64,000 nt of DNA, taken from positions 37,153 through 101,152 of the forward strand of contig CAZWNZ010000003.1 in NCBI GenBank assembly GCA_964635715.1. The letters are read 5' to 3'. The translations under genes were made by a program, and so were the position numbers. Source of the DNA: an uncultured Gammaproteobacteria bacterium (GTDB taxonomy: Bacteria; Patescibacteriota; Microgenomatia; UBA8517). Under the pieces are notes generated by a model. It was not told the DNA's origin, made no database searches, and saw only the letters and a list, made by a program, of their open reading frames with translations. Shown piece after piece: positions 25,875 to 47,815 of the stretch (position 1 is the first letter of the stretch; each line of letters opens with the position of its first letter).

Positions 25875-25904
25875 TTGTGACCATAATTGTCTCTTTCAAG
25901 TTGT

Positions 25905-25977
25905 GTCGCCAGAGGGATTCGAACCCTCAATTTCTTGGATGAGAACCAAGTATCCTAAGCCGTTAGATGATGGCGAC
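25905..25977 (-). tRNA. tRNA-Glu (anticodon CUC)
   Basis: Manual cloverleaf: acceptor GTCGCCA/TGGCGAC, D arm ATCT-AACGGCTTA-GGAT, anticodon arm CTTGG-TTCTCAT-CCAAG, T arm GAGGG-TTCGAAT-CCCTC. Confidence 0.75.
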
Positions 25978-31465: not shown

Positions 31466-32685
31466 TCTGTTTTTATATAATACTTTTTCCCTTTTAACTT
31501 TTCCGGCAGATGACTCTTTGTATCATATTTCTCATACCCTTTTCCATATCCAACCTCATCCATCAATTTGGTGACAGGGTTTCTGATTTTTAAAGGAACT
31601 GGAAGATTGCCGAACTTATTAACATCTGCCAGAGCTGACATATACGCGTCATACGCGCGTCTGTCTTTTTTGGCAGTGGCCAAATAAACTACTCCTGCTG
31701 CCAAATTTTCCTGACATTCGGGATAGCCAATAGTATTACAAGCCTGAAAAACTGCATTGGCAACTACCAGTGCAGTGGGGCTGGCAACATCTTCGGAAGC
31801 AAAAATAACCATTCTACGGGCAATGTAGAGAGGATCTTGTCCTGCCGCAACCATTCGGGCAAGATAATAAAGAGCTGCATCAACATCGCTTGCGCGCATT
31901 GATTTGATAAATGCCGAAATCACATTATAAAAATCCTCACCACGTTTATCAAAAGTATATTGACGTCTTTGGAGTGCTGTCTCCAAATCCGGGATTTTTA
32001 TTGTCGGCTTTCTGGTTAGAGTAGAGGCGATTTCCAAAACATTGAGCATGGTTCGGGCATCCCCATTACTTGCCTCAAGTAAAAATTTCTCTGATTCTTT
32101 TCCAAGTTTCTTCTTTAGATGTATCAGTGCACGATTTAGTATTTTTAATAACTCTTTTTCTGAAAGCTGATTGAGGATTAAAACCCGGCAACGGGAAAGT
32201 AGTGGTCCTATTACTTCAAAAGAGGGATTTTCTGTTGTGGCTCCGATGAACAAAATCTTCCCCGTTTCGACGTATGGTAATAATTTATCCTGCTGCGCTT
32301 TATTGAAGCGATGTATTTCATCAATAAAAACAATAGGAGATTTTGTCGTATCTTGAATAACGAATCTGGAATCTTGTATATTGGTTTTTCCATAATTCTT
32401 AATTCTTGATTCATCATTCAGCAAATCTTCGATTTGCTTCACCTTTGTATTAACAGCAGAGAATTCAAAAAAATCTCGTTTCAAATTTCCTGCAATAATT
32501 CGTGCTAGTGTAGTTTTGCCTGTTCCTGGAGGACCCCAAAAAATCAAAGAGGGGAAGAAGTTTGAAGTTTTGGCATTGGCAAAAAGTTTATATATTATTC
32601 CATCCTTCCCGACAATATTTTCCTGCCCAACAAAATCCTTGAGTGTTTTTGGTCTTAAGAGCTCGGGTAGGGGTATATTGGCCAT
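31462..32685 (-). CDS. rarA: replication-associated recombination protein A (RarA/MgsA AAA+ ATPase)
   Basis: Walker [18 protein letters not shown], Walker [17 protein letters not shown]-terminal MgsA helical domain. Confidence 0.9.
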
Positions 32686-32762
32686 GTGAGATTAAATTTA
32701 AATTAAATGCTATTCGATAAATATATATCACCAAATAAAATCCGAAGCAACCTGGTATTACA

Positions 32763-32790
32763 CACTTCAGTGATTCAAATCATTGAAGTG
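32763..32790. promoter_or_regulatory. imperfect 13-bp-arm palindrome with core TGATTCAAATCA
   Basis: CACTTCAGTGATT-ca-AATCATTGAAGTG (one mismatch) in the divergent rarA / 32826 intergenic region. Confidence 0.4.
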
Positions 32791-32825
32791 AGTTGAATAT
32801 AATCGTGATAGATTATAATTGATAA

Positions 32826-33458
32826 ATGATAGGTACTAAAATACTTGAGGAACGAAAATCTGAATTCAACGGGAATCTTCGTGTTGTTAAAACTTTGGGG
32901 ATAGGAACATATATCCAGTCAAATGGTTTAACTCAATCCGGTGGAATAGTTGAAAAAATTTGGAAGCAAACACTACGATCCCTAAATCATAAATCATTAA
33001 CCATAAATCATGTATTGGTTTTGGGGCTTGGTGGGGGGACTGTCGCAAAATTGATTAGGAAAAAATGGCCGGGCGCAAAAATTACCGGTGTTGAAATTGA
33101 TCCGATAATGGTTGAGCTAGGAAAAAAATATTTTAGGTTAAATGAAGCAGATGTTGATGTAAAAATTACAGATGCTATTAAATTTCTTAACTATAAATCA
33201 TCAACCATTAATCATTATGATTTAATTATTGTTGATCTTTATAACGGCGATCAATTTCCCAAACAGTTTGAAACTGAAAACTATATACAGCTTGTAAGAT
33301 CACACCTTACAAAATCCGGGGTCGCAATATTTAACAGGCTTTACTATGGCGACAAAAGACCCAAAGCAGTAAAGTTTGGAAATAAACTTCAAAAAGAATT
33401 TCTCAATGTGGAATGGTTTTACCCTGAAGCGAATTTAATGTTTTTGTGTTCAAAGTAG
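32826..33458 (+). CDS. spermidine synthase-like class I SAM-dependent methyltransferase-fold protein
   Basis: VLVLGLGGGTVAKLI ... GVEIDPIMVELGKKYF ... DLIIVDL pattern of the spermine/spermidine synthase family. Confidence 0.55.
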   Translation: MIGTKILEERKSEFNGNLRVVKTLGIGTYIQSNGLTQSGGIVEKIWKQTLRSLNHKSLTINHVLVLGLGGGTVAKLIRKKWPGAKITGVEIDPIMVELGKKYFRLNEADVDVKITDAIKFLNYKSSTINHYDLIIVDLYNGDQFPKQFETENYIQLVRSHLTKSGVAIFNRLYYGDKRPKAVKFGNKLQKEFLNVEWFYPEANLMFLCSK

Positions 33459-33492
33459 GCTCCAACCTGCTATACTCAATGAGCAGATTAAT

Positions 33493-36219
33493 ATGCTAAA
33501 AATATTTTCAAAATTACTGGATGTAAATGCAAGGGAAGTTGAAAGAATTACGAAGATTGTTGACCAGGTCAATTCCTTCGAATCAAAAGCAAAAAAACTG
33601 AAAGACGGAGATTTTTCCAAAAAGACGGAAGAGTTCAAAAAACGCTTGGAAAAAGGCGAAACCCTCAATGACTTACTGCCCGAAGCTTACGCTTTAGTTA
33701 GGGAGGCATCCTACAGAGTTTTGGGAATGCGTCATTATGATGTTCAGCTTATTGCTGCAGTTGCACTGTTCGAAGGTAAAGTTGCAGAACAGAAAACAGG
33801 AGAAGGAAAAACTTTGGCTGCAATTCCGGCACTTTATTTGCGTGCATTGACTGGCCGTGGGGCTCATCTTGTAACAGTTAATGATTACCTTGCCAGAAGA
33901 GATGCCGGATGGAATGCCCCGGTTTTTCACCTTTTGGGTATGAGTGTTGGTTCTATTGTTCAGGAAACAAAATCATATGTTTACGACCCTGATTTTACTG
34001 ATTCAAGTCATGGTGACGAGAGACTGGCGCATTTAAAACCCGCAGAAAGGCGCGAAGCCTATTCCTGCGATATTTTATACGGAACGAATAATGAATTTGG
34101 GTTTGATTACCTTCGGGACAACATGGTTAATTCGCTTTCCGATATGGTTCAGCGTGGACATCATTTTGCAATCGTTGATGAGGTTGATTCAATTCTCATT
34201 GATGAGGCCCGCACCCCTCTTATTATTTCCGCTCCTGATACCGAACCAACTCAAAAATATTATAAATTTGCCCAAATGGTTGACAAACTTAATCCGGATA
34301 CCGATTACACAATAGATGAAAAATCTAAGAGTGCGAGCCTAACGGAGACAGGAATTACTCGAGTAGAAAAAATACTCGGTGTAGATAATCTATATGAAAA
34401 AGATTTTGACTCAATCCATCATATAGAAAATGCTTTGCGTGCGAGAACTTTATATCTTCGGGATAAAGATTATGTCATTAAAGACGATCAGATAGTTATT
34501 GTTGATGAGTTTACCGGACGTCTTATGGTAGGACGCCGTTGGAGCGATGGACTTCACCAAGCAGTAGAGGCTAAAGAGAGTGTCCCCATTCAACAGGAAA
34601 GCAAGACCCTAGCTACGATTTCATTTCAAAATTACTTCAGGATGTATGATCATCTTTCCGGAATGACGGGTACAGCCGCAACAGAAGCAGAAGAGTTTAG
34701 AAAAATATACAAACTTGAAGTTATTGTTGTGCCGACAAATAAGCCAATGGTTAGGCGGGACTTGTCCGATACAATTTACAAAACTCTAAGAGGTAAGTAT
34801 GGAGCCATTGTTGAGGAAATTGGTGAGTGTCACAAAAAAGGTCAGCCTGTGCTGGTTGGTACTACTTCTATTGAGAAAAACGAAATTATCTCAGAATATC
34901 TTAAAAGAAAAAAAATTCCCCATAATGTATTAAATGCTAAAAATCACGAAAAAGAAGCAGAAATTATTGCCAAAGCTGGTGAGCCGGGAGCCGTAACTGT
35001 TGCCACGAACATGGCAGGGCGCGGAGTTGATATTGTTTTGGGAGGAGCAATGCCGGACAGGGTTGCGGGTGTTGATGATGAAAAATACAAGACGTCTGCG
35101 ACTTATAAAAAATGGAAAGAAACACATGAGAAGGTTATTAAGGCGGGAGGGCTTCATGTTGTCGGTACGGAACGCCACGAGTCAAGGCGTGTTGATAATC
35201 AGCTTAGGGGTCGTGCGGGTCGTCAAGGAGACCCTGGGTCATCTCGTTTTTATCTCTCAATGGAAGATGATCTGATGAGAATTTTCGGTGGCGAACAAAT
35301 AGGTGGCATGATGGACAGGCTTAACCTTCCTGAGGACCAACCGATAGAAAATTCCTTGATAAGCAAAGCAATAGAGCAGGCTCAGGTTAAAGTTGAAGGG
35401 TTCCATTTTGATATAAGAAAACGTTTGGTTGAATTTGACGACGTCGCAAATCAGCAAAGAGAGATTATTTACAAACAGCGCCGAAAGATACTTGAGTCTG
35501 GTGAAGTCAAAGAAGAAATTCGGGAGAAACTTAAGAGTCAAATAGGAAAAATTACTGAATTTGAGAGCTTTGGTGTTGATGGAGAAATCGATGCCGAAAG
35601 AATTGCTGTTGGTCTTGCCGAAGTTATTCCTTTTGATGACGCGTCCTTAAGGAATATAAAAAACCAGATCGCAAAAATTAAAGACATGGGAGAAGTCAGA
35701 AAATTCCTTAATCAAGTTTTGGACGATGTTTATGTAAAAAGGGAAAAGGATTTAACACCGGAAGTTATGAGAGAGGTTGAAAAATTTGCATATCTGGGTT
35801 CGATTGACCGTCTTTGGATGGACCACATCGATCATATCGATGATCTTAGAGAAGGAGTAACTCTTCGTGCTTACGGACAAAGGGATCCTTTGGTTGAATT
35901 TAAAAATGAAGCTTACGGATTATTTGAAAATTTAATAGGAAAAATAGATAAAGAGCTATCCAGAAGAATTTTCAGAATCGGAGTCGCAAGGCCCCAATCG
36001 GAGATTCCTTTGCATCTGGCCCGTGAGAATATAGATAAGAGCGATCTAACAGGGTTGTCTGGGAGCGGAGCTTCGACTGCACGGGAGGGAACGCCGGCAT
36101 TTTCTTCTTCGTCTGCCAATGGTGAGACAACATCCTCCAAACTTGGCAGAAATGACCCGTGCTGGTGCGGGAGCGGAAAAAAGTGGAAGAAGTGCCATTA
36201 TCCCAAACTTCCTCAATAA
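33493..36219 (+). CDS. secA: preprotein translocase ATPase SecA
   Basis: DEAD-like motor motifs (MRHYDVQL, EGKTGEGKT, VDEVDSILIDEARTPLIIS, TNMAGRGVDI) and the C-terminal zinc motif CWCGSGKKWKKCH. Confidence 0.95.
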   Translation: MLKIFSKLLDVNAREVERITKIVDQVNSFESKAKKLKDGDFSKKTEEFKKRLEKGETLNDLLPEAYALVREASYRVLGMRHYDVQLIAAVALFEGKVAEQKTGEGKTLAAIPALYLRALTGRGAHLVTVNDYLARRDAGWNAPVFHLLGMSVGSIVQETKSYVYDPDFTDSSHGDERLAHLKPAERREAYSCDILYGTNNEFGFDYLRDNMVNSLSDMVQRGHHFAIVDEVDSILIDEARTPLIISAPDTEPTQKYYKFAQMVDKLNPDTDYTIDEKSKSASLTETGITRVEKILGVDNLYEKDFDSIHHIENALRARTLYLRDKDYVIKDDQIVIVDEFTGRLMVGRRWSDGLHQAVEAKESVPIQQESKTLATISFQNYFRMYDHLSGMTGTAATEAEEFRKIYKLEVIVVPTNKPMVRRDLSDTIYKTLRGKYGAIVEEIGECHKKGQPVLVGTTSIEKNEIISEYLKRKKIPHNVLNAKNHEKEAEIIAKAGEPGAVTVATNMAGRGVDIVLGGAMPDRVAGVDDEKYKTSATYKKWKETHEKVIKAGGLHVVGTERHESRRVDNQLRGRAGRQGDPGSSRFYLSMEDDLMRIFGGEQIGGMMDRLNLPEDQPIENSLISKAIEQAQVKVEGFHFDIRKRLVEFDDVANQQREIIYKQRRKILESGEVKEEIREKLKSQIGKITEFESFGVDGEIDAERIAVGLAEVIPFDDASLRNIKNQIAKIKDMGEVRKFLNQVLDDVYVKREKDLTPEVMREVEKFAYLGSIDRLWMDHIDHIDDLREGVTLRAYGQRDPLVEFKNEAYGLFENLIGKIDKELSRRIFRIGVARPQSEIPLHLARENIDKSDLTGLSGSGASTAREGTPAFSSSSANGETTSSKLGRNDPCWCGSGKKWKKCHYPKLPQ

Positions 36220-36221
36220 AT

Positions 36222-36848
36222 TTATTTTAAATGTGTGGTGTCGCTCCAGGTTTTTAGCGTCCAACCGTATTTATCTGTATACTCACAGATTGTAACTCCG
36301 GTATTTTCCAGATACATATGTTTTTTTATTTTTAAAAGAGTTTCCGGTGTTAAATCTTCTCCCAGAAGCATTTTTGCAACAGTAGATTCTATAAAAGCCG
36401 AATGGCTTACACACAATACAGTTTGACCTTCATGATGTTTTACCAGATGATCCAACACACCCTCTACTCTTTCATTTAACTCATTAAAAGTTTCTTCGTC
36501 AGAATATTTCCAGTTCTTCTTGTGGTAATTTTGAGAAATTAAAGATTTAATTTTAACAACTTCCGGATCGTCAACTTTTTTCCCTCTAATTTCACTTGGA
36601 CTGCCACATTCTGCAAGACCCTCCCAGTGTTCAATGGGAATATTCAGCATTTCGTTTATAATTTCCGCTGTTTTTGCAGCTCTTGTCATGGGGCTTGCGT
36701 AAATCAGGTCAAAGTGAATGTTCTCCAGTCTTTTTGCGATAGCTTTTGCCTGATTCACACCTTTTTCCGATAGTGGGGTTTCCGGCAGGTGATGTATATT
36801 ATTTTTGTTTCCTTCGGACTGTCCATGTCTGACAAAATAAACAAGCAT
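36222..36848 (-). CDS. histidine phosphatase family protein (phosphoglycerate mutase-like)
   Basis: N-terminal VYFVRHGQSEGN RHG motif. Confidence 0.8.
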   Translation of the reverse strand: MLVYFVRHGQSEGNKNNIHHLPETPLSEKGVNQAKAIAKRLENIHFDLIYASPMTRAAKTAEIINEMLNIPIEHWEGLAECGSPSEIRGKKVDDPEVVKIKSLISQNYHKKNWKYSDEETFNELNERVEGVLDHLVKHHEGQTVLCVSHSAFIESTVAKMLLGEDLTPETLLKIKKHMYLENTGVTICEYTDKYGWTLKTWSDTTHLK

Positions 36849-36878
36849 ATGCGTATTATAAAATGTTATATTTGAATT

Positions 36879-37217
36879 ATGAAGGTGAATAATTATCTAG
36901 GGCAGGATGTTGAAGTTGTTATAGATCGACCTTTAGGGTCGAAACATCCAAAACATGGTTTTACCTATGCCGTAAATTACGGTTTTGTTCCGGGAACAAA
37001 AGCAGCGGACGGAGAGGAACTCGATGCCTACTTTTTAGGGACGGAAAAACCTGTTAAAACAGGAACAGGAAAATGTATTGCGGTTATTCATAGAACAAAT
37101 GACGATGATGATAAATTAATAATTAGTGCAAACGGCAAAGATTTCACTAATGAGGAAATTGAAAAACTAACAGAATTTCAGGAAAAGTGGTTTGAACACG
37201 AAATAATCAGGAAATGA
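36879..37217 (+). CDS. short inorganic pyrophosphatase-like protein
   Basis: AVNYGFVPGTKAADGEELD parallels family I PPase NYGxIPxTxxxDGDPxD, and WFEH parallels HFFEHY. It lacks about 40 N-terminal residues of canonical PPases. Confidence 0.4.
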   Translation: MKVNNYLGQDVEVVIDRPLGSKHPKHGFTYAVNYGFVPGTKAADGEELDAYFLGTEKPVKTGTGKCIAVIHRTNDDDDKLIISANGKDFTNEEIEKLTEFQEKWFEHEIIRK

Positions 37218-37795
37218 AAATTATATTGGCATCAAATTCAGCAATAAGAAAAAAATTAATGGATAGTTTGGAGGTTCCGTATAAAATCATTCCGGCAAAC
37301 ATTGATGAAAAAAAGATTCGTGATAGGAATCTAAGAGTTCGGTCTGAAAAGATAGCGAGAGCAAAAGCTGAATTTGTTGCAAAAAATAATGGAGGAATAA
37401 TTATTGCCGCTGACACTTTCGGATCTGTTAATGGTCAAGTTTTAGAAAAACCGAAAAACCTGGAAGAGGCAAAAGAGATGTTAAAGCTTCAATCGGACAA
37501 AGAATGCTTAATGTATACAGGTTTTTGCTATATAGACAGAAAAAACGATGTGGATTTTTCAGATTCGGTTGAGATAAAGTACACTTTTCGAAAACTTTCC
37601 GATGAAGAAATTAATTATCAGATAAAAAACGTGCCCGTACTTCAATATTCTGCAGCTTTTGCTCCAAATGATCCAAATCAAATTAGTCTGATTGCAGAAA
37701 TGGATGGTTCCTTTACAGGTCTTATGTATGGAATTCCTGCTGAGATTTTAATTCCGTTACTGCAAAAATCTGGAGTTAAATCATTTTCAAGATAA
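37214..37795 (+). CDS. maf: Maf-like nucleoside-triphosphate pyrophosphatase
   Basis: IILASNSAIRKKLMDSL...IDEK N-terminal Maf signature. Confidence 0.8.
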   Translation: MKIILASNSAIRKKLMDSLEVPYKIIPANIDEKKIRDRNLRVRSEKIARAKAEFVAKNNGGIIIAADTFGSVNGQVLEKPKNLEEAKEMLKLQSDKECLMYTGFCYIDRKNDVDFSDSVEIKYTFRKLSDEEINYQIKNVPVLQYSAAFAPNDPNQISLIAEMDGSFTGLMYGIPAEILIPLLQKSGVKSFSR

Positions 37796-37967
37796 ACTTA
37801 CATCTTGTTGGGAATATTTTCTATAAATTTTTTTTGCCGGAATTTTTTCTAAATAACCAATTTCATCCTTTGAAAGCATAGCCAATTCTAACATTTGTGA
37901 CCAAGCAATTTACAAGAATCATCAAATACTTTATTATTTGTTTACGTTAGTTTTAAAGGGGGTGAGG

Positions 37968-38660
37968 ATGTTGAAAAAAATCTATTTAACTTTAACTTTA
38001 GTATTTACTTTAGGTTTTTTGGCGGTTGTTTTTAATGGAAATAGCTTTGCCAAAGCACAGACATCTGCTGGCAACCAGAATGATTTAAGAATTGAAGTAG
38101 ATACAGCTTCCCCTACGGGCAATCAAACTCAAAATCAGGTAAGCACTCAAAATATGGGTGAAGATACAAACTTGCAGGTAAGAACCGAAGAGCAGGAAAG
38201 CACAGGAGCCGGCAACGGAACGGGTTTGGAAAACAAAAATCCAAACGCCGTTGAACACATGAGCATTGTTGCACAAAGAGTGCAGGAATTGCTTCAGGTG
38301 AAGACAAAGGGCGGAATTGGTGATCAGGTAAGAATAATTGCCCAAGATCAAAATCAAGCGCAAGACCAAATACAAGCCCGTCTTGATAAAATAGAGGCTA
38401 AGGGCAATTTAGTAAAGTCGCTTTTTGGCTCGGATTATAAAGCCATTAAAGATCTGAAGCAGCTGCTCGAGCAAAATCAGTTGAGGATTCAAGAACTGCA
38501 GCAGTTAATGAATCAAGTTACAAACGAAGCTGATGAAGCAACTATCCAAGAAACAATAGAAGCTTTAACTCAGGAAAACATTTCTTTGCAGGAAATTATT
38601 TCCTCGGAAGAAAGTATGAAGAGTCTTTTTGGATGGTTAGTCAAACTTTTTGTTAATTAG
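37968..38660 (+). CDS. secreted Gln-rich coiled-coil protein, hypothetical
   Basis: Strong SD (aaagggggtgagg) precedes the ATG at 37968. Signal/TM helix, then Q/E-rich heptad-like sequence. Confidence 0.45.
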   Translation: MLKKIYLTLTLVFTLGFLAVVFNGNSFAKAQTSAGNQNDLRIEVDTASPTGNQTQNQVSTQNMGEDTNLQVRTEEQESTGAGNGTGLENKNPNAVEHMSIVAQRVQELLQVKTKGGIGDQVRIIAQDQNQAQDQIQARLDKIEAKGNLVKSLFGSDYKAIKDLKQLLEQNQLRIQELQQLMNQVTNEADEATIQETIEALTQENISLQEIISSEESMKSLFGWLVKLFVN

Positions 38661-38670
38661 TTAGTTTGAA

Positions 38671-38714
38671 AAACAAGCAATCTTTTGATTGAAGGGGATT
38701 GCTTGTTTTGTTGT
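38671..38714 (+). terminator. rho-independent terminator-like hairpin
   Basis: AAACAAGCAATC ... GATTGCTTGTTT perfect 12-bp stem followed by tgttgt, directly after the 38660 stop. Confidence 0.5.
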
Positions 38715-38726
38715 ATAATTACTTTC

Positions 38727-39260
38727 ATGGAAGAACAAAGCACTCAGTCCTCGGGAAATAAATTTATTCCTGTTTTGATATTTTTAGCAACACTCCTTGT
38801 TGTTGGGGCAATTTACCTTGTTGTTAACAAAAAAGATAGCAATCAGTACTTACAAACAACCGACCAGTCTGGTACTATTGACTCGAATGTTGAATCTGAA
38901 GAAATTGTTTCTTCTGAAGAAGAAATGGAAAAAGTAACTGAATTAAAAATTGAAGATGAAGTTGTCGGAACGGGAACTGAGGCGATTTCCGGGAAAACTG
39001 TAACAGTAAATTATTTGGGCACTCTTACAGATGGGACAAAATTTGATAGTTCTTATGACCGGAATGAACCCTTCAGTTTTACTCTTGGTGCAGGGGAGGT
39101 TATTGAAGGTTGGGACAAAGGAGTAGTTGGAATGAAGATTGGTGGAAAAAGAAAACTAACGATCCCATCCTCAATGGCTTATGGTGACAGTGGTATTTCC
39201 GGCGCTATCCCCGGAGGTGCAACATTGGTTTTTGAAGTTGAACTTCTCAAAGTTGAATAG
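38727..39260 (+). CDS. FKBP-type peptidyl-prolyl cis-trans isomerase
   Basis: [58 protein letters not shown] core. The start is trimmed to the ATG after the terminator hairpin. Confidence 0.8.
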
Positions 39261-40358
39261 ATGTCACAACTCTTTTTTAAGTCTAAGAATGGCAATATCC
39301 CTCTACCTCTATTTTTTCCTGATGCAACACGCGGTGTCATAAGATCTTTAGACACCGGTGATATAGAATCTACAAAAACAAATGGAATTTTAGTAAATAC
39401 TTTTCATCTTTGGCAGGAACTTGGTGGAGATGTTCTGGAGAAGTTTGGAGGTATTGGGAATTTTATGAATTTTTCCGGTGGAATTATTTCCGATTCAGGA
39501 GGTTTCCAAGTAATGTCCGTAATTAAATCAGGCGCTCTTAAGGGACGGATTACGGATGAGGGTGTGATTTTTCATCCAACCAAAAAAACCAAAAAGATAC
39601 TGACTCCCGAAAAGTCGATAGAATTTCAAATAAAACTAAAAACAGACATGGTCGTTGTACTGGATGACTTTACAGATCCCAAATACTCGTATGAAGAGGC
39701 GAAAGATTCTGTTGAAAGGACTATTCTTTGGGCAAAGCGCAGTAAAGATGAGTTTGAAAAGCTTTGTAAAAGTAAAAAAATAAGCGAGAAAGAAAAACCT
39801 TACATTCTAGGAGTGGTTCAAGGAGGGAAATACCAGGATCTTAGAAAATATTGCGCCGAAGAATTGGTAAAAATCGGCTTTGATGGTTTGGGTTATGGAG
39901 GTTGGCCAATTAATGATGAGGGTGATTTTGATTATGAATCTGCTAAAACTATTGCTGACAATACACCCAAAGATTATTTCCTCTATGGACTTGGTGTAGG
40001 AAAACCTGAAGAAGTTGTTGCCTTAAATAAAATGGGTTTTAACATCTTTGATTGTGTTCTTCCCACCCGCGACGCCAGGCACGGCAGACTTTATGTTTAT
40101 AACGCAAATTGTATAGAAGAAATTGATGTTCATAAACCGAACTTTTATTCTTTTTACACTCCCGACAAAGAAAGACATTATAAAGACAAATCACCGGTAA
40201 GTCTTGCGTGCAATTGTTTGCTTTGCAAAAGATATTCCAGATCGTATCTTGCCCACCTTTTCAAGATTGGAGATTTTACCGCAGGAAGATTAGCAACAAT
40301 CCATAACTTACGATTTTACTCGCTACTAATGGAGAAACTAGACTTGACAAATCCGTGA
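39261..40358 (+). CDS. tgt: queuine tRNA-ribosyltransferase (tRNA-guanine transglycosylase)
   Basis: SDSGGFQ substrate-binding motif, IFDCVLPTRDARHG nucleophile region, C-terminal CxCxxC...H zinc site (CNCLLCKRYSRSYLAHL). Confidence 0.85.
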   Translation: MSQLFFKSKNGNIPLPLFFPDATRGVIRSLDTGDIESTKTNGILVNTFHLWQELGGDVLEKFGGIGNFMNFSGGIISDSGGFQVMSVIKSGALKGRITDEGVIFHPTKKTKKILTPEKSIEFQIKLKTDMVVVLDDFTDPKYSYEEAKDSVERTILWAKRSKDEFEKLCKSKKISEKEKPYILGVVQGGKYQDLRKYCAEELVKIGFDGLGYGGWPINDEGDFDYESAKTIADNTPKDYFLYGLGVGKPEEVVALNKMGFNIFDCVLPTRDARHGRLYVYNANCIEEIDVHKPNFYSFYTPDKERHYKDKSPVSLACNCLLCKRYSRSYLAHLFKIGDFTAGRLATIHNLRFYSLLMEKLDLTNP

Positions 40359-40372
40359 CATAGTGTCTATAC

Positions 40373-41035
40373 TTGCGCACTACTATGGAAGAGGCTCAAA
40401 ATCAATCTCAAGGATTTTCCCAGGGGACTCCACAACCGGGGGAAGACAGAGTTTCTTTTCCCACTGTCGGCAGCGATAAAAAAAATGGCGGCGCAAAAAC
40501 ACTTTTGATCATTGGTATTCTGATATTGGTTGGGATTTTAGGCTATGTGATTTATAAAAGTGCATCCGGCAACAATGAGGATACTGCTTTAACAGAACCG
40601 ACCTCTTATGAAAATATGGCAGCTCCCGACGAAAATCCTGTTCCAACCGAAACTCCAATTCCCGAATCGTCACTAACAGCTGAAGATAGAGAGGACGTTA
40701 CCATACAAGTACAGAATGGAACCGGAGTATCAGGTGAAGCAGCTTATTTAAAGGATATATTGGAGGATATGGGTTATTCGGAAGTAGCCACAAGTAACTC
40801 TGCTTCTCAGGATGCTACATCCACTAAGGTTAGTTTTTCAAGCTCGGTCTCAGCAGCTGTCAAAAGCGAGATAATCGCAAAGCTGAACTCTTTGTATAAG
40901 AGTGTTAGCGAAACAAGTTCAACAAGTTCCTCATATGATGTTGTCGTAATAACAGGTTTGAAGAAAGGCGCTACTGCAAAACCTTCGGCTTCACCTTCTG
41001 CTTCTCCGACCCCAACTGCTACCCCCGAGGATTAA
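40373..41035 (+). CDS. LytR_C (LytR/CpsA/Psr C-terminal) domain protein
   Basis: TM helix, PT-rich linker, VTIQVQNGTGVSGEAAYLKDILEDMGY LytR_C-like motif. Confidence 0.5.
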   Translation: MRTTMEEAQNQSQGFSQGTPQPGEDRVSFPTVGSDKKNGGAKTLLIIGILILVGILGYVIYKSASGNNEDTALTEPTSYENMAAPDENPVPTETPIPESSLTAEDREDVTIQVQNGTGVSGEAAYLKDILEDMGYSEVATSNSASQDATSTKVSFSSSVSAAVKSEIIAKLNSLYKSVSETSSTSSSYDVVVITGLKKGATAKPSASPSASPTPTATPED

Positions 41036-41064
41036 TATATTTTCGATTATGCTAAAATGAGTGT

Positions 41065-41523
41065 ATGAATGGCTTGCCCAAGATACCTTCAGGTCAATTT
41101 GATTTTAATATAGGAGGCATTACTATCCCTATACAATATTGGCAAGTGACTGCAATAATAGCCTTTGTTTTTGTTGTAGTTCTTCTTTTAGCCAAACTTC
41201 GGCGACACAGGGTTGACTGGTCGTTTAAAGGTGTGGCCTTCGGAGTATTTTTTGGATTCCTTTTGGCTTTGTTTATGGAAGGGTTTTTGATAATTGGAGG
41301 AAGAACCGCTTTAACATCAGTTTTAGGCTGGGAAAATCCACCTCCGTTTTTGGCCACCGCCCTTGATTCAGGTAAAAACAAGCTGGTGCAAGTTTTGGGG
41401 ATAAAAGACCAAATCCCATCTTCTTTTGCCAGTGAGAATGTTACCGCGAACGATGCTATAGAAATTTTACAGAGATTAAATCCAGCTGATACAAAAACTG
41501 TCAAATCAGTTTACTGTAGGTAA
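41065..41523 (+). CDS. membrane protein, hypothetical
   Basis: Three hydrophobic helices. Confidence 0.4.
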   Translation: MNGLPKIPSGQFDFNIGGITIPIQYWQVTAIIAFVFVVVLLLAKLRRHRVDWSFKGVAFGVFFGFLLALFMEGFLIIGGRTALTSVLGWENPPPFLATALDSGKNKLVQVLGIKDQIPSSFASENVTANDAIEILQRLNPADTKTVKSVYCR

Positions 41524-41594
41524 TTTCTCTGTTTTCTTTTCCTCTTTTACCCTCCACCTTTCACCTTTTACCTAGTTTAGGTATACTTCAAGGT

Positions 41595-42650
41595 ATGAAA
41601 GAAGAAAAACAAACACCTGAGGAATTAATAATAAGGTTGCAAAAATTAATTGAGGTAACCCGGCTTTCTGAAAAGAAAGAAAAAATTATTGATTTGGAAG
41701 CCAAAGTTTCTGAACCTGATTTGTGGAATAATCCGGAAAACGCAAAAGCCTTAACACAGGAACTCTCCGATTTGAAAAAAGAGATAGAGGAAGTGGAGGA
41801 ACTTTCAGAAACATTGGAGATTTTAAAGCAAGTTAAGGATGAAAAAGAACTGGTAAAAGCCGAGAGGGATCTTGCCAAGCTTGAGCTTTTGTCTTATCTT
41901 TCTGGCGACTATGATGCCAAAAATGCTCTAATATCAATTCACGCGGGACAAGGTGGTACTGAAGCTATGGATTGGACAGGAATGCTTTATAGAATGTATT
42001 TAAGATTTTGTGAGCGTAAAGACTGGGGTACTCAAACTTTAGATTATACTGCGGGGGAAGAAGCTGGAGTTAAAAGCGTTACCTTTAAAGTTTCCGGTCA
42101 TTATGCTTATGGATACCTCAAGGGTGAAGCCGGTACTCACAGATTGGTCCGCCAATCTCCTTTTAATGCAGATAAATTAAGACAGACCTCTTTTGCATTA
42201 GTTGAGGTTATGCCTGAACTTGAAGATATGGATCTTAAAGATCTCCAAATAAAAGATGACGATTTGGACTGGCAATTTATTCATGCCGGCGGCCATGGTG
42301 GACAGAATGTTAACAAAGTGGCAACAGCTGTAAGACTTACACATATACCTACCGGAATTGTTATCACAGCGTCAACAGAGCGATTCCAGGAGCAGAATAG
42401 AAAAGCTGCTTTGGACTTATTGCGTGGTAAACTTTGGCTGAGACAGCAGGAAGTTGAGAAGGGTCTTAAAAAGGAGATTAAAGGAGATTATCGTCCGGCT
42501 TCGTGGGGTACCCAAATCAGAAGCTATGTTTTGCACCCGTATAAAATGATTAAAGATCTTCGGACTGAAGTCGAAACTGGAAATACGGTGGCGGTACTGG
42601 ATGGAGAAATTGATGAGTTTGTTGATGCTGAACTAAAACTGAAAATATAA
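41595..42650 (+). CDS. prfB: peptide chain release factor 2
   Basis: SPF tripeptide (RQSPFNA) and GGQ motif (GGHGGQNVNK). Single uninterrupted ORF; no CTT TGA frameshift site near codon 25. Confidence 0.9.
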   Translation: MKEEKQTPEELIIRLQKLIEVTRLSEKKEKIIDLEAKVSEPDLWNNPENAKALTQELSDLKKEIEEVEELSETLEILKQVKDEKELVKAERDLAKLELLSYLSGDYDAKNALISIHAGQGGTEAMDWTGMLYRMYLRFCERKDWGTQTLDYTAGEEAGVKSVTFKVSGHYAYGYLKGEAGTHRLVRQSPFNADKLRQTSFALVEVMPELEDMDLKDLQIKDDDLDWQFIHAGGHGGQNVNKVATAVRLTHIPTGIVITASTERFQEQNRKAALDLLRGKLWLRQQEVEKGLKKEIKGDYRPASWGTQIRSYVLHPYKMIKDLRTEVETGNTVAVLDGEIDEFVDAELKLKI

Positions 42651-42652
42651 AT

Positions 42653-43117
42653 TTGCGTTTTTGTCTTTTAGGGTGTTATATTGAGAATTACATGGAACCT
42701 CATAATAATCAGGGCGGTAAAAAGAAATGGCCGTATATTTTAGGATCTCTTTTGATTGTTTTGGCAGGAATCGGAACTGCTTGGTTTATTTCTTCGAAAA
42801 CGAATATTGGGACAGGTTCCGGATCGGAAGCAGCTCCTGGAGTTAAAGTCACTTCTACCGAAGCAGGCAAGCTTGATCCTAATATTAAATACGACACTGC
42901 AACAGGTGTTCTGGAAGAAGGGGGTATTGCAGGAGAGGGAACCTATCATCTTGCGCGCAATGGTGGAGGATCTTCTAAAGATGTAGCACTTACATCCAGC
43001 ACAGTGAGTCTTGATCCATTTTTAGGCAAAACGGTTGAAATTTGGGGCGAAACAATATCTTCAACAAGGCCCGGCGGATGGCTAATGGACGTTGCCAAAA
43101 TAAAAGTTGCTGAGTGA
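42653..43117 (+). CDS. hypothetical membrane-anchored secreted protein
   Basis: Single TM helix, then a Gly/Ser/Thr-rich soluble part. Confidence 0.4.
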   Translation: MRFCLLGCYIENYMEPHNNQGGKKKWPYILGSLLIVLAGIGTAWFISSKTNIGTGSGSEAAPGVKVTSTEAGKLDPNIKYDTATGVLEEGGIAGEGTYHLARNGGGSSKDVALTSSTVSLDPFLGKTVEIWGETISSTRPGGWLMDVAKIKVAE

Positions 43118-43161
43118 TTATTAGGACTGGCGTAATTCGTTTTCACCTGCTAGTCTAAATT

Positions 43162-43947
43162 ATGTCTCAAGAAGAGCCTATTTTAATAAGTTTTAAAAAT
43201 GTATCTAAGTCATATGGTTCTATTGTGGCGTTGGATGATGTTTCCCTCGAAGTTAGAAAAGGGGAATTTGTATTTTTAACAGGGCCTTCAGGTTCCGGCA
43301 AAACCACGATTTTAAAATTGATTTTAGGAGAAATCATACCCAACAAAGGTGAAGTTAAGGTAGAAAATCTCGATGTGGCTAATTTGATTGAAAAAGATAT
43401 ACCTTTATTCCGACAGAAAATCGGTGTAATTTTTCAGGATTTTAAAGTTCTTCCTGACCGCACTGTATACGAAAATGTGGCTGTTGCTTTAGCTGTGATT
43501 GGACTTTCCGAGAATGAATGGGAAGAGAGAGTGAAGCATGTTTTAAATCTTGTTGGCTTGGAGAATCAGATGAATATGTTTCCATCTCAGCTTTCCGGAG
43601 GAGAATTACAAAGGGTATCTCTTGCCAGGGCTCTTTCAGTTAACCCCAAAATTATTTTGGCAGACGAACCAACGGGCAATCTTGATTGGGAGACATCAGA
43701 CGTTTTAATGAGGCTTCTTGAAAAAATCAACAAAGAAGGAAAAACTGTGATTATGGCCACTCACAATATGGAGATAGTAGATAAATACAAGAAGAGAGTA
43801 ATTCATGTTGAAAAACCTAAGCTGTCGATTAAAGAAGAAAAAGATGCCGATGAAATAAAGAAACACAAAAACGAAAATGAAAACAAAAAGAAGGAGAATG
43901 ATTCCAAAAAGAATGTTGTCGATGATGATAAAATAAAAGATCAATGA
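43162..43947 (+). CDS. ftsE: cell-division ABC ATPase FtsE (with Lys/Glu/Asn-rich C-terminal tail)
   Basis: Walker A GPSGSGKTT, signature LSGGELQRVSLARAL, Walker B ILADEPTGNLD. Confidence 0.85.
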   Translation: MSQEEPILISFKNVSKSYGSIVALDDVSLEVRKGEFVFLTGPSGSGKTTILKLILGEIIPNKGEVKVENLDVANLIEKDIPLFRQKIGVIFQDFKVLPDRTVYENVAVALAVIGLSENEWEERVKHVLNLVGLENQMNMFPSQLSGGELQRVSLARALSVNPKIILADEPTGNLDWETSDVLMRLLEKINKEGKTVIMATHNMEIVDKYKKRVIHVEKPKLSIKEEKDADEIKKHKNENENKKKENDSKKNVVDDDKIKDQ

Positions 43948-44858
43948 GCACCCATTTTAAAACTGCATGGAGTTACATTAGAAGATCCCCATTTCAGGCT
44001 CTTGCTGCCTCATTTGTTTTAACACTGACATTTTTTGTTACAACAATTGTTTCTGTTTTGGTTTATTCATCGTCAAAATTAATTACTTATTTTGAAACCA
44101 GGCCTCAGGTCATAGCTTTTTTGAAAAGTGATGCTGGCGATACAGATGTGGCAAACCTTCAGCATAAATTGGAAGAGAATCTATATATCGAAGACGTCAA
44201 ATATGTAAGCAAAGAAGAGGCACTGGCAATATATAAAAATGCAACCAGCGACAATCCCCAACTGGGGGAGTTGGTAAGCCCTTCTGTTTTTCCATCATCA
44301 CTAGAATTTTCAGTATCGGATTTATCTTTCGCCCAAAGCGTAATCGATGAGGTAAAGGCGGAAAGTATTGTTGAGTCGGTTGGTTTTACGGCCGCCATTG
44401 GCGGAGAAGCCAGCTTGGGTGATGTAATCAGCCGTCTTAAAACAATTACAACATATGTGAGAATAGGCGGACTCATATTTGTCGGTCTTTTGGCAATTAC
44501 TTCTTTAGTTATCCTTCTGGTCGTAACCAGTATGCGCGTTGTCAAAAGGAGGGAAGAAGTAGAAATACTCAAGTTAATTGGTGCCTCCAAAGGTTTTATT
44601 AGAAGCCCATTGGTTATTGAGGCTTTTATATATACGCTTTCCGGAGTATTTTTTGGCTGGGCAATCGCTTTCATTGCAGTTCTCTATCTTTCGCCGTCGG
44701 TGGTGACATATTTTGGCACCATTCCAATTCTTCCGAAAGATATACTGGGGTTATTTGAGCTTTTTGGCGTAATTCTGGGGATAGAACTATTGGGCGGTTC
44801 AATTTTAGCATCAGGTGGAAGTTTGATGACCATATCCAGGGTTAAAAAGATGAGATGA
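43944..44858 (+). CDS. ftsX: cell-division permease-like protein FtsX
   Basis: N-terminal TM, large extracellular loop, three C-terminal TM helices. Its start overlaps the ftsE stop. Confidence 0.75.
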   Translation: MSTHFKTAWSYIRRSPFQALAASFVLTLTFFVTTIVSVLVYSSSKLITYFETRPQVIAFLKSDAGDTDVANLQHKLEENLYIEDVKYVSKEEALAIYKNATSDNPQLGELVSPSVFPSSLEFSVSDLSFAQSVIDEVKAESIVESVGFTAAIGGEASLGDVISRLKTITTYVRIGGLIFVGLLAITSLVILLVVTSMRVVKRREEVEILKLIGASKGFIRSPLVIEAFIYTLSGVFFGWAIAFIAVLYLSPSVVTYFGTIPILPKDILGLFELFGVILGIELLGGSILASGGSLMTISRVKKMR

Positions 44859-44870
44859 TAGAATTATGCA

Positions 44871-46049
44871 ATGGAATATGTTTTTAAAAAAAGTTTTTTA
44901 CTTCTTAGCGTCCTTCTAATATTTTTTGCATTTACAAAAAATGCTTATGCACAAACTTGCGGTAGCTTGGATGAATGCAGCACTTTAATTAAGCAATATG
45001 AGGAACAGATTACTAAACTTCAAGGTCAGGCAAGCACTTTGAAAAATCAAATTGCCCAATTTGATACACAGATAAAATTAACCTCACTTAAGATTGCCCA
45101 AACCGAAGAACAAATAAAGATGCTTGGGGGAAGAATTGACCAACTTGGAGATTCGTTAAATTCTTTGACGGAAGCATTTAACGCCAGGGCGGTGGAGACT
45201 TATAAATTATCAAAAATAGAAAATAATATTGTTTTGATTCTTTCCGTGGGCAATTTGGAGGAAGTTGTCACAAAGTTTCATTATTTACAGAGAATTCAGG
45301 AGGAGGACCAAAATTTACTTATAAGACTTGAACAAGCCCAGACAACTTACGAGGGTGAAAAAACAGAGCAGGAAACTTTGCAAGCCCAGCTTGAAACCCA
45401 AAAGACAAATCTAAATTCGCAAAAAACTGCAAAGAATAGTCTCCTGTCAGCTACTAAAAATGATGAGTCTAAATATCAAAGTTTACTTAGCCAAGCCAAA
45501 GCGCAGCTTGCTGCTTTCCAAAGCTATGTTACCAGACAGGGTGGAGCATCTATTCTTAGTGGGCAGACAAAATGTAATGATTGGGGATGTTATTACAATC
45601 AAAGGGATGCTGAATGGGGAAATATCGGGTTAGGAGGTTCGTCATATACGGTTGCAAATTATGGGTGCTTGGTTACTTCCGTTTCAATGTTGGCAAGTCA
45701 CTATGGTAAAAATATTAAACCGGGTGATATAGCTGTCAGTAGCGATGCTTTTGTTCCGGGTACCGGTTACCTATATCATTCATTTTTTGCCAATGGTGTT
45801 TCTATTTCCGTGTCGGCTGTTTCCAAAAGCCTGCTCGATTCGGAACTTGCGGCAGGACGACCTGTGATAGCAGGTCTTTACTCCGGGCCTGACCATTTTA
45901 TCGTTATCGTTAGAAAAGACGGAGATAACTATATAATGAAAGATCCGTTTTTGGAAAACGGAGCTGGTTCCGATGGAAATGGTAGACCGTTGACCGATGA
46001 ATATAGTGCCTCCGATATAACAAGTTTGCGCTTGGTAAGCTTCAACTAA
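44871..46049 (+). CDS. secreted coiled-coil protein with C-terminal C39-like/papain-like cysteine peptidase domain (PcsB/EnvC-like)
   Basis: Signal peptide and ~200 aa of Q/E/L-rich coiled-coil. The C-terminal YGCLVTSVSMLASHYG segment has Cys and His spaced as in Peptidase_C39-like domains. Confidence 0.5.
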   Translation: MEYVFKKSFLLLSVLLIFFAFTKNAYAQTCGSLDECSTLIKQYEEQITKLQGQASTLKNQIAQFDTQIKLTSLKIAQTEEQIKMLGGRIDQLGDSLNSLTEAFNARAVETYKLSKIENNIVLILSVGNLEEVVTKFHYLQRIQEEDQNLLIRLEQAQTTYEGEKTEQETLQAQLETQKTNLNSQKTAKNSLLSATKNDESKYQSLLSQAKAQLAAFQSYVTRQGGASILSGQTKCNDWGCYYNQRDAEWGNIGLGGSSYTVANYGCLVTSVSMLASHYGKNIKPGDIAVSSDAFVPGTGYLYHSFFANGVSISVSAVSKSLLDSELAAGRPVIAGLYSGPDHFIVIVRKDGDNYIMKDPFLENGAGSDGNGRPLTDEYSASDITSLRLVSFN

Positions 46050-46163
46050 CTTTCACTGATGATAGCGTTAATGAATGATACAAAGATTTAATATTATTAA
46101 TATATTCATCATTTCATTTATGTGTTAGTATATAATTACGATAGTAACTAATCTACAAAACCC

Positions 46164-46192
46164 TGTTTCACTGATTCAAATCAGTAAAACAG
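46164..46192. promoter_or_regulatory. 14-nt-arm inverted repeat with core TGATTCAAATCA, 13 nt upstream of the YerC/TrpR-like gene
   Basis: CTGTTTCACTGATT-ca-AATCAGTAAAACAG (one mismatch). Confidence 0.45.
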
Positions 46193-46204
46193 TGATCTGC
46201 TGAA

Positions 46205-46648
46205 ATGGCAAGAATATCTAAATATCCGATTTCTAACGATGTGTATAAAAGAATATCAGATATATTTTTATGGGTATTGGTGAACCTAAGATCCAAAAAC
46301 GAATCATTAAACTTTGTCAATGAATTTTTAACTCCAACTGAAAGAATAATGTTGGCCAAAAGATTAGCAATCAGTCTACTTCTAGCAAAAGAATATAGTT
46401 ATAGAGATATTTCAAGAACTCTCCGAGTCAGTACTGCGACAATAGGAACAGTGTCTACTCAATATAAATACGGTTCCGTTCTGAAAAAATTAGTTTTTAT
46501 TCTTTTGGAAGATGAAAAGTTAGAAGACTTTTGGTTATCTGTTGGTGAAACAATATCTTCAATAGGATTAATTGGTGGTAAGGGTGCTGGAAGTTGGAGA
46601 TATCTGAATACAGAAATAAAGAAAAAACGTTCTCAAAAAGCGTTCTAA
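46205..46648 (+). CDS. TrpR-related YerC/YecD-family DNA-binding protein
   Basis: LTPTERIMLAKRLAISLLLAKEYSYRDISRTLRVSTATI helix-turn-helix pattern typical of the YerC/YecD (Trp-repressor-like) family. Confidence 0.45.
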   Translation: MARISKYPISNDVYKRISDIFLWVLVNLRSKNESLNFVNEFLTPTERIMLAKRLAISLLLAKEYSYRDISRTLRVSTATIGTVSTQYKYGSVLKKLVFILLEDEKLEDFWLSVGETISSIGLIGGKGAGSWRYLNTEIKKKRSQKAF

Positions 46649-46657
46649 TTTGTATCA

Positions 46658-47815
46658 ATGATTCAAATCACCAAATCAAAAAGAATAACAATAAGTTTCA
46701 TTGTAAGTTTGTTTATATTTTTATTATTTATGACAATAAACACAAAAGTTAAAGGACAGGTTGTTATAAATGAATTTCAATTGAGTCCGTCCAACGAACA
46801 ATGGATTGAACTCTACAATAAAGGTGAAGATTCTGAAAATTTGTCTGGATGGATAATTGATGATAATGGTGGAAGTAGCGGTGTTTATACAATTCCCTCA
46901 GATACATACCTGTTGCCAAATAAATGCCTCTCCTTTAAAGGCACCTTTAACTGGAATGTATCTAGCCAAGACATAGTTAGACTTATTCAGCCTTCTGGCG
47001 TATTTGAATCATATTCTTATTTAAAATCTCCTGGAGATTATGTAAGCATAGGGCGAATAGTGGATGGTGATGGCGACTTTACCATACTTGGTTTGCAATC
47101 AAGAGATAAATATAATTCGAATGGAGAAAGTTGCTTAATGCCAGTTTCAACACCGTCTCCATTACCCTCTCCGATATTGACCCCATCTCCGACTATTTCA
47201 CCAACTTCCCCAAAAGCTGTTTATAAAATTAACCAACCAAAAGACAATGATGGAAATGATCTCTCGAGCGTTAAAATTTATGTCGATGGTAACTACACTC
47301 ATCATGAAGATGAAGAAGTTCTTCAGTTTTTTGATGGGCATAAATGTAGCTCCGATGTTTTATGTGGTTTGGGTACTCACACAATCAGTTTAAAGAAAGA
47401 TGGCTTTTCGACTTGGGAAGACACGCAGGATTTGCTAGCAGGAGTAAATTTGGAAGTAAATCCTGTTTTAGACAAGTTAAGCACAGCCCTACCTACAGCC
47501 TCGCCTACCGTTTCACCAATTTCGACAAAAACTCCGAAGCCAACTCCAACAAAAACACCATCACCAACCGATGTTGCAGCTTCAGAGTCTGCGGTTTTGG
47601 GAATTCATGAAAGTTTTTTAAAAACTACAGATCCAAGTCAGGAAGCCATACAAAAAAGTGAAGGGAAAGCTCCTATTCTACCCATTATTTTAGTTTTTGC
47701 AGGTTTGTGCTTTATAGCTATCCCTATTTTTAGTATTATTAAGAATGGCCAAAAAAGTTCTGAGACTCATAAACCTTTGGATTCCTCCGATTCTTTGGGC
47801 AGCAATGATATATAA
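46658..47815 (+). CDS. lamin-tail-domain (LTD) surface protein with PT-rich linkers and C-terminal TM anchor
   Basis: VVINEFQLSPSNEQWIELYNKGEDSENLSGWIIDD LTD signature, Pro/Ser/Thr linkers, C-terminal hydrophobic helix. Confidence 0.55.
   Translation: MIQITKSKRITISFIVSLFIFLLFMTINTKVKGQVVINEFQLSPSNEQWIELYNKGEDSENLSGWIIDDNGGSSGVYTIPSDTYLLPNKCLSFKGTFNWNVSSQDIVRLIQPSGVFESYSYLKSPGDYVSIGRIVDGDGDFTILGLQSRDKYNSNGESCLMPVSTPSPLPSPILTPSPTISPTSPKAVYKINQPKDNDGNDLSSVKIYVDGNYTHHEDEEVLQFFDGHKCSSDVLCGLGTHTISLKKDGFSTWEDTQDLLAGVNLEVNPVLDKLSTALPTASPTVSPISTKTPKPTPTKTPSPTDVAASESAVLGIHESFLKTTDPSQEAIQKSEGKAPILPIILVFAGLCFIAIPIFSIIKNGQKSSETHKPLDSSDSLGSNDI

Follow-up and report, generated by a model that had tools for sequence, protein, structure and literature searches.

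What is an exact 12-nucleotide sequence, TGATTCAAATCA, doing at three places around a gene for a TrpR/YerC-like regulator? The question is raised by a 64-kb stretch of bacterial DNA (hereinafter the window, in whose own positions all coordinates are given) which, judging from homologues, comes from a member of the Microgenomates/Patescibacteria. We consider it likely that the gene encodes an autoregulated repressor of the TrpR family and that the 12-mer is the core of putative 28-bp operators, which would delineate a small, lineage-variable regulon centered on a secreted lamin-tail-domain (LTD) protein. This answer is developed below from the positions of the sites, their conservation at homologous loci and their co-variation with the protein, and is then weighed against several other explanations.

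Three copies of the palindrome core in the window

Exact copies of TGATTCAAATCA are located at 32771-32782, 46172-46183 and 46659-46670, all on the plus strand and nowhere else in the window, as the first-pass annotation of this DNA had reported. Shuffled sequences give an expectation of 0.03 copies, with three or more matches in none of the 100 shuffles, and near-matches with up to two mismatches occur in the window at the chance level (15 against 18.8 expected); of these, the two with a single mismatch, at 33999 and 37669, are within coding sequence and have no symmetric flanks. The long inverted repeats that had been described around the first two copies are also there, each with a single mismatch. 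Site 1 is the 28-bp palindrome CACTTCAGTGATTCAAATCATTGAAGTG (32763-32790, core 32771-32782), with 13-nt arms and one G/T mismatch, located in the intergenic region between the divergent rarA and methyltransferase genes. Site 2, the putative 5' operator, is the 30-bp palindrome CTGTTTCACTGATTCAAATCAGTAAAACAG (46163-46192, core 46172-46183), with 14-nt arms, and ends 12 nt before the regulator ATG at 46205. These are the only two palindromes with a score of at least 10 (0 to 4 nt centre) across the whole window. Site 3, the putative 3' operator (46651-46678 in the 28-bp frame, core 46659-46670), begins 3 nt past the regulator stop codon and encloses the ATG of the LTD gene at 46658; it keeps only the left arm TGTATCAA, the core and the outermost CA, the right arm being LTD coding sequence.

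The 12-mer is not part of a dispersed repeat either, an outcome that the first-pass annotation had named as refuting its proposal: in 230 kb of DNA from related genomes, picked independently of the regulator as rarA-methyltransferase loci, no other such palindrome was found outside the methyltransferase promoter. Together, the shuffles, the near-match counts, the palindrome scan of the window and the 230 kb of relatives rule out chance or a dispersed repeat as the source of the three copies. The identities initially given to the adjoining genes (YerC/TrpR-like, LTD, rarA and spermidine-synthase-like) were confirmed by Pfam. The outer arms of site 2, TGTTTCAC and GTAAAACA, resemble the half-sites of the chromosomal parS consensus, TGTTNCACGTGAAACA, split by the 12-mer; this likeness is probably coincidental, given that other loci have different arms.

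Palindromes flank homologous regulator genes on both sides

A scan of one genome per species yielded 76 loci (designated by L numbers) with homologues of the 147-aa protein, at 28-58% identity. Almost all of the roughly 70 homologous loci have a palindrome of the same build 0-50 nt upstream of the ATG; the equivalent upstream palindrome at 64 of 69 homologues supports the earlier suggestion that the regulator may control its own gene through the site preceding it. The core is typically found again downstream of the gene. When each locus was searched with its own 14-bp core, allowing up to two mismatches, a second copy was detected near the stop codon (-15 to +130 nt) in 56 of the 64 usable loci, compared with just 12 matches in 2294 control comparisons with the cores of other-class loci. 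Thus, site 3 is a conserved 3' copy and not a coincidence.

The overlap of site 3 with the LTD start codon, already seen at first pass, is part of this pattern: the 3' copies of the window, L002, L078 and L165 contain the start codon of an LTD or surface-protein gene, and the LTD start is located 0-15 nt past the 3' copy in L004, L005, L006 and L010. The regulator-LTD gene pair itself recurs in L002, L004, L005, L010 and L078. In the window, the LTD gene (46658-47815, plus strand; Pfam LTD), the product of which has a signal-peptide-like N-terminus, is separated from the regulator stop codon by a gap of 9 nt that is almost all palindrome, so that the LTD gene would be either co-transcribed through the bound operator or started at the operator.

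The extent of the conserved element was estimated from dyad symmetry over 118 sites. Watson-Crick complementarity is at least 72% through ±14 and then drops to 53% at position 15 and 42% at position 16, which indicates a functional unit of 28 bp; the outer TGT...ACA of this 28-bp site is widely conserved. The 12-mer therefore holds as the core of the putative operator but not as the complete unit. In loci with both copies, the operators are 454-604 bp apart from centre to centre (median 489; 487 for sites 2 and 3 of the window), which is within looping distance. No periodicity at 9.5-12 bp is seen (Rayleigh p > 0.1), although phasing matters little at about 490 bp. Additional copies, beyond the bracketing pair, are located immediately before the start codons of neighboring genes in L005, L006, L020, L030 and L073, and the extra copies in other genomes adjoin genes for TsaB-like, DNA-alkylation-repair, FolD, MFS-like transporter and membrane proteins. 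No histidine genes adjoin any of the sites, and no tryptophan genes are found nearby. With respect to the palindromic operator characteristic of the TrpR family, which was assessed by presence only, the 28-bp dyad adjoins the regulator gene in nearly all loci and overlaps promoter-like sites.

The core changes together with the recognition helix

The cores of the palindromes form at least 10 classes, including TGATTyrAATCA, TGAATCGATTCA, TGATAyGTATCA, TGTATTAATACA, ATCATGTAACGGTACATGAT, TGTTTTAAAACA, TTATTTAAATAA, TATCATATATGATA and others. The core class tracks the lineage of the protein, and each class is tied to particular recognition-helix variants. The most informative comparison involves a syntenic group of 12 loci with orthologous peptidase, regulator and LTD genes, in which the core class switches between TGATT, TGAAT and TGATA. 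In this group, both flanking copies switch core class together, and residues of the recognition helix switch with them: V84 is replaced by Y or F where the core is TGAAT, and R74 by H where the core is TGATA. Such parallel change of the core and the recognition helix is as expected of a cognate protein-operator pair, and we regard this co-variation, detected by sequence comparison, as the strongest evidence that the palindromes may be operators.

Several metagenome-assembled genomes (MAGs) encode two or three YerC-like paralogues, each flanked by its own distinct core. Pairs within one MAG include L010/L049, L005/L064, L030/L046, L035/L050 and L038/L063, with cores such as TGATTTAAATCA and TATATTAATATA. 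These paralogues look like orthogonal regulator-operator pairs.

The regulator is a TrpR-family protein with an additional C-terminal segment

The regulator gene (46205-46648, plus strand) encodes a protein of 147 aa that matches the Pfam Trp_repressor family, PF01371, over residues 21-91 with a score of 49 bits (gathering threshold 27; E = 6.7e-13). The scores against the NCBIfam models fall short of the respective cut-offs, both for YerC/YecD (TIGR02531, 34.6 vs 42.2 bits) and for TrpR (TIGR01321, 29.5 vs 67.25 bits). Sequence matches in the PDB are YerC-like structural-genomics proteins (3FRW, 3KOR and 3G1C) and cover residues 11-105 only. In the AlphaFold2 model, the core of the protein (residues 11-102) is confidently predicted (predicted local distance difference test score of about 90), and Foldseek ranks 3g1c, E. 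coli TrpR and 3frw as the best matches to this model (target TM-scores 0.7-0.8). The remaining segment of about 45 aa (residues 105-147) is modeled as two low-confidence helices (106-144), and a search of this C-terminal segment (48 aa) against Pfam produced no match even at E = 10. Neither Pfam nor Foldseek reveals a catalytic or HUH/Y1 domain in the protein, which consists of the TrpR fold and the two helices. Judged by these matches and by the structural model, the regulator is a member of the TrpR family that is an equivalog of neither HisR/YerC nor TrpR. We found no description of this regulator family in Patescibacteria in the literature.

Promoters in the vicinity of the palindromes

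Upstream of site 2 lies a 35-nt block, ATTTCATTTATGTGTTAGTATATAATTACGATAGT (46111-46145, plus strand, with TATAAT at 46131-46136), that is near-identical in L078, though the regulator encoded at that locus is only 61% identical; in relatives without the regulator, a related block immediately precedes the LTD gene. The regulator module appears to sit behind this conserved promoter, and site 2 would be located at about +20 to +48 relative to the predicted transcription start. With the promoter block upstream of it, site 2 is probably transcribed in the window. The arrangement differs at other loci. Among 25 loci with a sigma-70-like promoter, the center of the palindrome is located at -50 to +5 in 16, and the palindrome lies just downstream of the predicted start in 7; in several loci, the palindrome lies over the -35 element and is therefore absent from the transcript of that promoter. 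The possibility that the palindrome is the promoter itself, with the outer TTGnnA serving as the -35 element and its complement as the -10 element, was dropped because the register relative to promoters varies among loci.

In L011, L012, L017, L020, L037, L044, L049, L050 and others, the best sigma-70-like promoter leaves only 0-6 nt between the predicted transcription start and the ATG, which suggests that many of these regulator genes may have leaderless mRNAs.

Site 1 in the rarA-methyltransferase intergenic region

The first copy of the 12-mer was correctly placed between rarA and a spermidine-synthase-like gene: site 1 lies in the intergenic region of these divergent genes, both of which are identified by Pfam. 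On one side is the MgsA/RarA AAA+ gene (31462-32685, minus strand), which starts 78 nt from site 1 and is a possible second target of this site. On the other side is the candidate target, a spermine/spermidine-synthase-like methyltransferase gene (32826-33458, plus strand; 210 aa; Pfam PF01564), the product of which scores under all equivalog cut-offs of NCBIfam. A promoter-like site leading into the methyltransferase gene, TTCAAA-18-TATAAT (32774-32803, plus strand), is identified by a consensus match only (10 of 12 positions) and overlaps site 1, such that TTCAAA at the center of the site 1 core doubles as the -35 element.

The intergenic region is normally about 50 nt long in the approximately 79 orthologous rarA-methyltransferase loci. 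At 38 of 79 such loci, it contains a conserved element, CCAAATAAAATCCGAAGCAAC in the window (32731-32751; consensus CCAAAyAAAAwCCGAAAyAAG), which abuts the -10 TATAAT in most of the relatives; in the window, the two are set apart by about 45 nt, site 1 among them. This element is probably a shared divergent promoter or the site of another factor.

A variable island between the peptidase and vanZ genes

The regulator resides in a divergent island of about 1.3 kb (46030-47300) that encompasses the promoter, site 2, the regulator gene, site 3 and the 5' half of the LTD gene and is swapped or absent in close relatives. These closer relatives were obtained by a search with the conserved upstream peptidase, not with the regulator. 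Between the window and L165, DNA identity falls from 80-90% in the flanks to 45-50% within the island, and, compared with L165-L167, the peptidase is 93% and VanZ 90% identical, whereas the regulator is only 40% identical. The single palindrome of L165-L167, CACTTCGATGTATCGATACATCGAAGTG, encloses the start codon of a surface-protein gene. In L163/L164, L168 and L169, where the peptidase is 75-80% identical, the peptidase gene is followed by an LTD gene with neither a regulator nor a palindrome; in L170, neither the regulator nor the LTD gene occupies the slot; and in L171, the regulator is gone and a solo palindrome, ACTTCGATGAATCGATTCATC, encloses the ATG of a frameshifted surface-protein gene. 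Thus, between ftsEX and a PcsB/CwlO-like peptidase gene on one side and vanZ and an epimerase gene on the other, the slot either is empty or holds a regulator with an LTD gene, a different regulator with a different surface protein, an LTD gene on its own, or a solo palindrome with a frameshifted surface-protein gene. The swaps and absences across L163-L171 indicate that the regulator, its putative operators and the N-terminus of the LTD protein behave as an exchangeable accessory module.

Weighing the explanations

Given that the protein belongs to the TrpR family and has its fold, and given where the sites lie, how they are conserved and how they co-vary with the protein, we infer a mechanism that involves binding, a negative sign of regulation, an oligomeric repressor with an effector, and a roadblock or looping role of the 3' copy. 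The three sites would be double-stranded DNA operators of the repressor encoded at 46205-46648, which would most likely bind as a dimer and, through the additional C-terminal helices, possibly as a dimer of dimers, to a dyad of 28 bp with inner TGATT-N2-AATCA and outer TGT...ACA. Site 2, located in the leader of the regulator gene past the conserved promoter, would mediate autorepression; the repressor at site 3 would block either read-through or initiation into the LTD-VanZ genes; and at site 1 it would cover the -35 element of the methyltransferase promoter, 78 nt from the start of divergent rarA.

Several observations weigh against this mechanism or go beyond it. There is no stringent sigma-70 match upstream of site 2, where the promoter is assigned by conservation alone. 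In L165-L167, the closest relatives by flanking genes, only the 3' copy is present and no upstream palindrome is visible. The YerC-type palindrome is found at only 3-4 of the approximately 79 orthologous rarA-methyltransferase loci: the window and L100 (TTGTCCCGATGATTCGAATCATTAGGACAA), plus L116 and L118, whose cores are different; the association of site 1 is, accordingly, recurrent but not conserved, a conserved regulon member at this position is rejected, and the methyltransferase is a plausible, evolutionarily sporadic member of the putative regulon. The gene beyond the downstream copy is convergent in 17 of 50 loci, so that in these cases the 3' copy is out of promoter position, and yet it is kept. 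Asymmetric cores, with such centers in window sites 1-3 (TTCAAA) and in L006, L017, L023, L024, L031, L035, L044, L045 and L054, have the same orientation in all copies within a genome (11 same, 0 flipped and 3 ties, disregarding L007 and L014). Relative to the gene, their orientation varies by clade, some clades having TGTAACGGTACA and others TGTACCGTTACA. Such uniformity within a genome is not needed for a symmetric dimer to bind duplex DNA. Finally, differences between the copies within a genome are compensatory, with 41 cases of own-arm pairing against 10 of cross-pairing (p = 1.5e-5), as is also visible at ±12-14 between sites 1 and 2 of the window; this excess is more than independent half-sites predict. 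Template-switch correction of quasi-palindromes is a neutral explanation for compensatory changes of this kind. Thus, with regard to the initial proposal of an operator with a small regulon, conservation, co-variation and promoter overlap speak for it, but the two-sided bracketing, even where the neighbor is convergent, is left unexplained. Bracketing, fixed orientation and compensatory changes are beyond simple autoregulation with a regulon; candidate explanations are a roadblock or insulator, looping through the C-terminal helices, template-switch correction and selection for cruciforms.

The same features can be accommodated if the palindrome-regulator-palindrome unit is a portable cassette, in which the copies are the ends for direct-repeat recombination or propagation and the helix-turn-helix protein recognizes these sites, regulation being secondary. 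In this case, one would understand why palindromes stand on both sides of the gene in 56 of 64 loci irrespective of the orientation of the neighbor, why asymmetric cores are always in direct orientation, and why the arm changes are compensatory and symmetrizing. The diversity of the genomic contexts (37 upstream and 42 downstream neighbor clusters for about 55 loci), the incongruence of the module with its flanks relative to L165, with sharp identity boundaries, and the lack of the regulator in the slot of L163/L164, L168, L169 and L170 point in the same direction, and the solo palindrome at the surface-protein start codon of L171 is the product expected of recombination between copies. We nevertheless find this explanation unlikely: the protein lacks a catalytic domain, the copy number is low (three in 64 kb), the broader synteny of the regulator loci is stable across many genera, and the extra copies occupy promoter or start-codon positions of ordinary genes. 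Moreover, homologous recombination in the flanks, which are conserved around this hypervariable surface-protein locus, could account for the swap of the island, and a scan of viral contigs revealed no viral loci with relatives of the regulator, on which ground a phage or mobile origin of the regulator is rejected. In its most novel form, which seems equally doubtful, the unit would be a self-contained module exchangeable among bacteria of the candidate phyla radiation. Its 28-bp dyads would then not be operators only: as directional ends able to form hairpins or cruciforms, they would insulate the module and mediate its gain, loss and replacement, with the N-terminal domain of the neighboring surface protein moving along.

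Two further explanations dispense with protein binding to duplex DNA or with the TrpR-like protein altogether, and we assign a very low probability to the first of them, namely, that the palindromes form RNA hairpins in both untranslated regions (5' and 3') of the regulator mRNA and serve there as a stabilizer, processing site or terminator, whether without the protein or as the RNA that it binds. Sites 1 and 2 do fold far better than shuffled sequences (z = -3.5 to -5.6), site 2 lies downstream of the conserved promoter in the window and in L078 and hence would be transcribed, the 3' copy is at a terminator position, the minus-strand reading of site 2 was flagged as terminator-like, and the changes between copies are compensatory. 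However, among mismatched pairs, G·T is no more common than A·C either in the upstream copies (24 vs 26) or in the downstream copies (27 vs 23); there is no strand bias, and the hairpin reading was rejected for this lack of strand-specific wobble tolerance. In addition, the palindrome covers the -35 element or the spacer of the likely promoter in many loci, site 3 shows no excess folding (z of about 0) and yet is conserved in position, no consistent T-run or U-tract follows the 3' copies, and the core tracks the recognition helix of the protein; the search of Rfam with the palindromes gave no family match, so that a known RNA family is rejected. Given the parity of G·T and A·C, the promoter overlap, the unfolded site 3 and the negative Rfam result, we read the palindrome as a putative duplex-DNA operator with a promoter-relative register that varies by locus, as is usual for repressors. 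It is, likewise, highly improbable that a factor other than the TrpR-like protein binds the sites, or that they form cruciforms recognized by structure, with the TrpR-like gene being a mere neighbor. The dyad symmetry itself is apparently selected, and the AT-rich centers would favor extrusion, but more than 50 lineages show the gene-palindrome association, within one syntenic group the core and the protein change together, and the compensatory changes have the neutral explanation given above.

Other features of the window and of a related contig

At 38670-38709, between the open reading frames 37938-38660 and 38685-39260, lies an inverted repeat with perfect 13-nt arms, AAAACAAGCAATC / GATTGCTTGTTTT, and a loop of 14 nt; it is followed by TTTTGTTG and looks like a terminator. 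The window contains two tRNA genes (21511-21581 and 25904-25977, both on the minus strand), and an inverted repeat with 16-nt arms, GACGAGTTATTTTTAA / TTAAAAATAGCTTGTC, is located at 21910-21947, close to the first of these. In another Patescibacteria contig, an unrelated palindrome of 34-44 nt, TTTTTTATTCACAAATTTATTTATGGATAAAAAA, occurs twice within 0.8 kb (L150, 2826-2859 and 3550-3593; also in L151).

Implications

Regulation in the candidate phyla radiation (Patescibacteria) is almost unexplored, and here we encounter a regulator family that is widespread and whose operator code is readable. The apparently orthogonal repressor-operator pairs make up a natural set for the study of specificity evolution and for synthetic biology, and the bracketing of a regulator gene by its own putative operator is not a standard layout. 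The position of the bracketed regulator within a hypervariable surface-protein locus, adjacent to FtsEX and a PcsB/CwlO-like hydrolase, suggests that it may control variable cell-surface proteins of these episymbionts. If only the ordinary part of the proposal is true, it amounts to a well-supported new subfamily of TrpR-type autoregulators; should the unit turn out to be a cassette, it would be a non-enzymatic helix-turn-helix counterpart of the repetitive extragenic palindromes and their associated RAYT proteins (REP/RAYT), with natural swapping of regulator, operator and surface-antigen sets.

Comparison with known systems

The E. coli TrpR operator is quoted as TGTAcTnGTnnACnAgTACA (PMC9413887). 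The regulator in the window shares with E. coli TrpR the fold, the Pfam family and a palindrome with outer TGT...ACA, and the operator at TrpR's own gene together with its small scattered regulon resemble the layout proposed here. Unlike E. coli TrpR, the protein is 147 aa long with about 45 extra C-terminal residues, the dyad spans 28 bp as opposed to 18-20 bp, a second putative operator follows right after the stop codon, and the neighborhood is devoid of tryptophan genes.

By sequence and structure, the closest relative is YerC of B. subtilis, that is, HisR, a TrpR-family histidine repressor that, like TrpR, binds 20-bp palindromes of lineage-specific consensus (PMC9413887). The HisR operator consensus is cacTTTAnnnnnnTAAAgtg (cacTTTAn6TAAAgtg), its regulon consists of histidine genes, and the paper describing it reports no 3' flanking operator (PMC9413887). 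Lineage-specific palindromic operator motifs are thus common to the two. In contrast to HisR, however, the cores are TGATTn2AATCA and other classes rather than cacTTTAn6TAAAgtg, the neighbors are LTD, methyltransferase, TsaB-like, FolD and alkylation-repair genes, and the protein has a C-terminal extension that HisR lacks.

The presence of two identical putative operators a few hundred bp apart, one of them beyond the regulated promoter, is reminiscent of LacI (O1/O2) and GalR (OE/OI), and the location of the repressor gene between operators is shared with lambda CI (OL, OR). The protein family is different from all of these, the spacing shows no helical phasing, and candidates for a bridging oligomer are the C-terminal helices, modeled with low confidence. 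As in REP/RAYT, there is a single-copy gene with a lineage-specific palindrome on either side (56 of 64 loci), and the palindrome also occurs elsewhere in the genome; unlike REP/RAYT, there is no HUH/Y1 domain, the copies number a handful rather than hundreds, and they are located at promoters and start codons. Compared with these systems, the longer dyad, the extra C-terminal segment and the conserved operator bracketing are new, and the regulator is otherwise of the known TrpR-family type.

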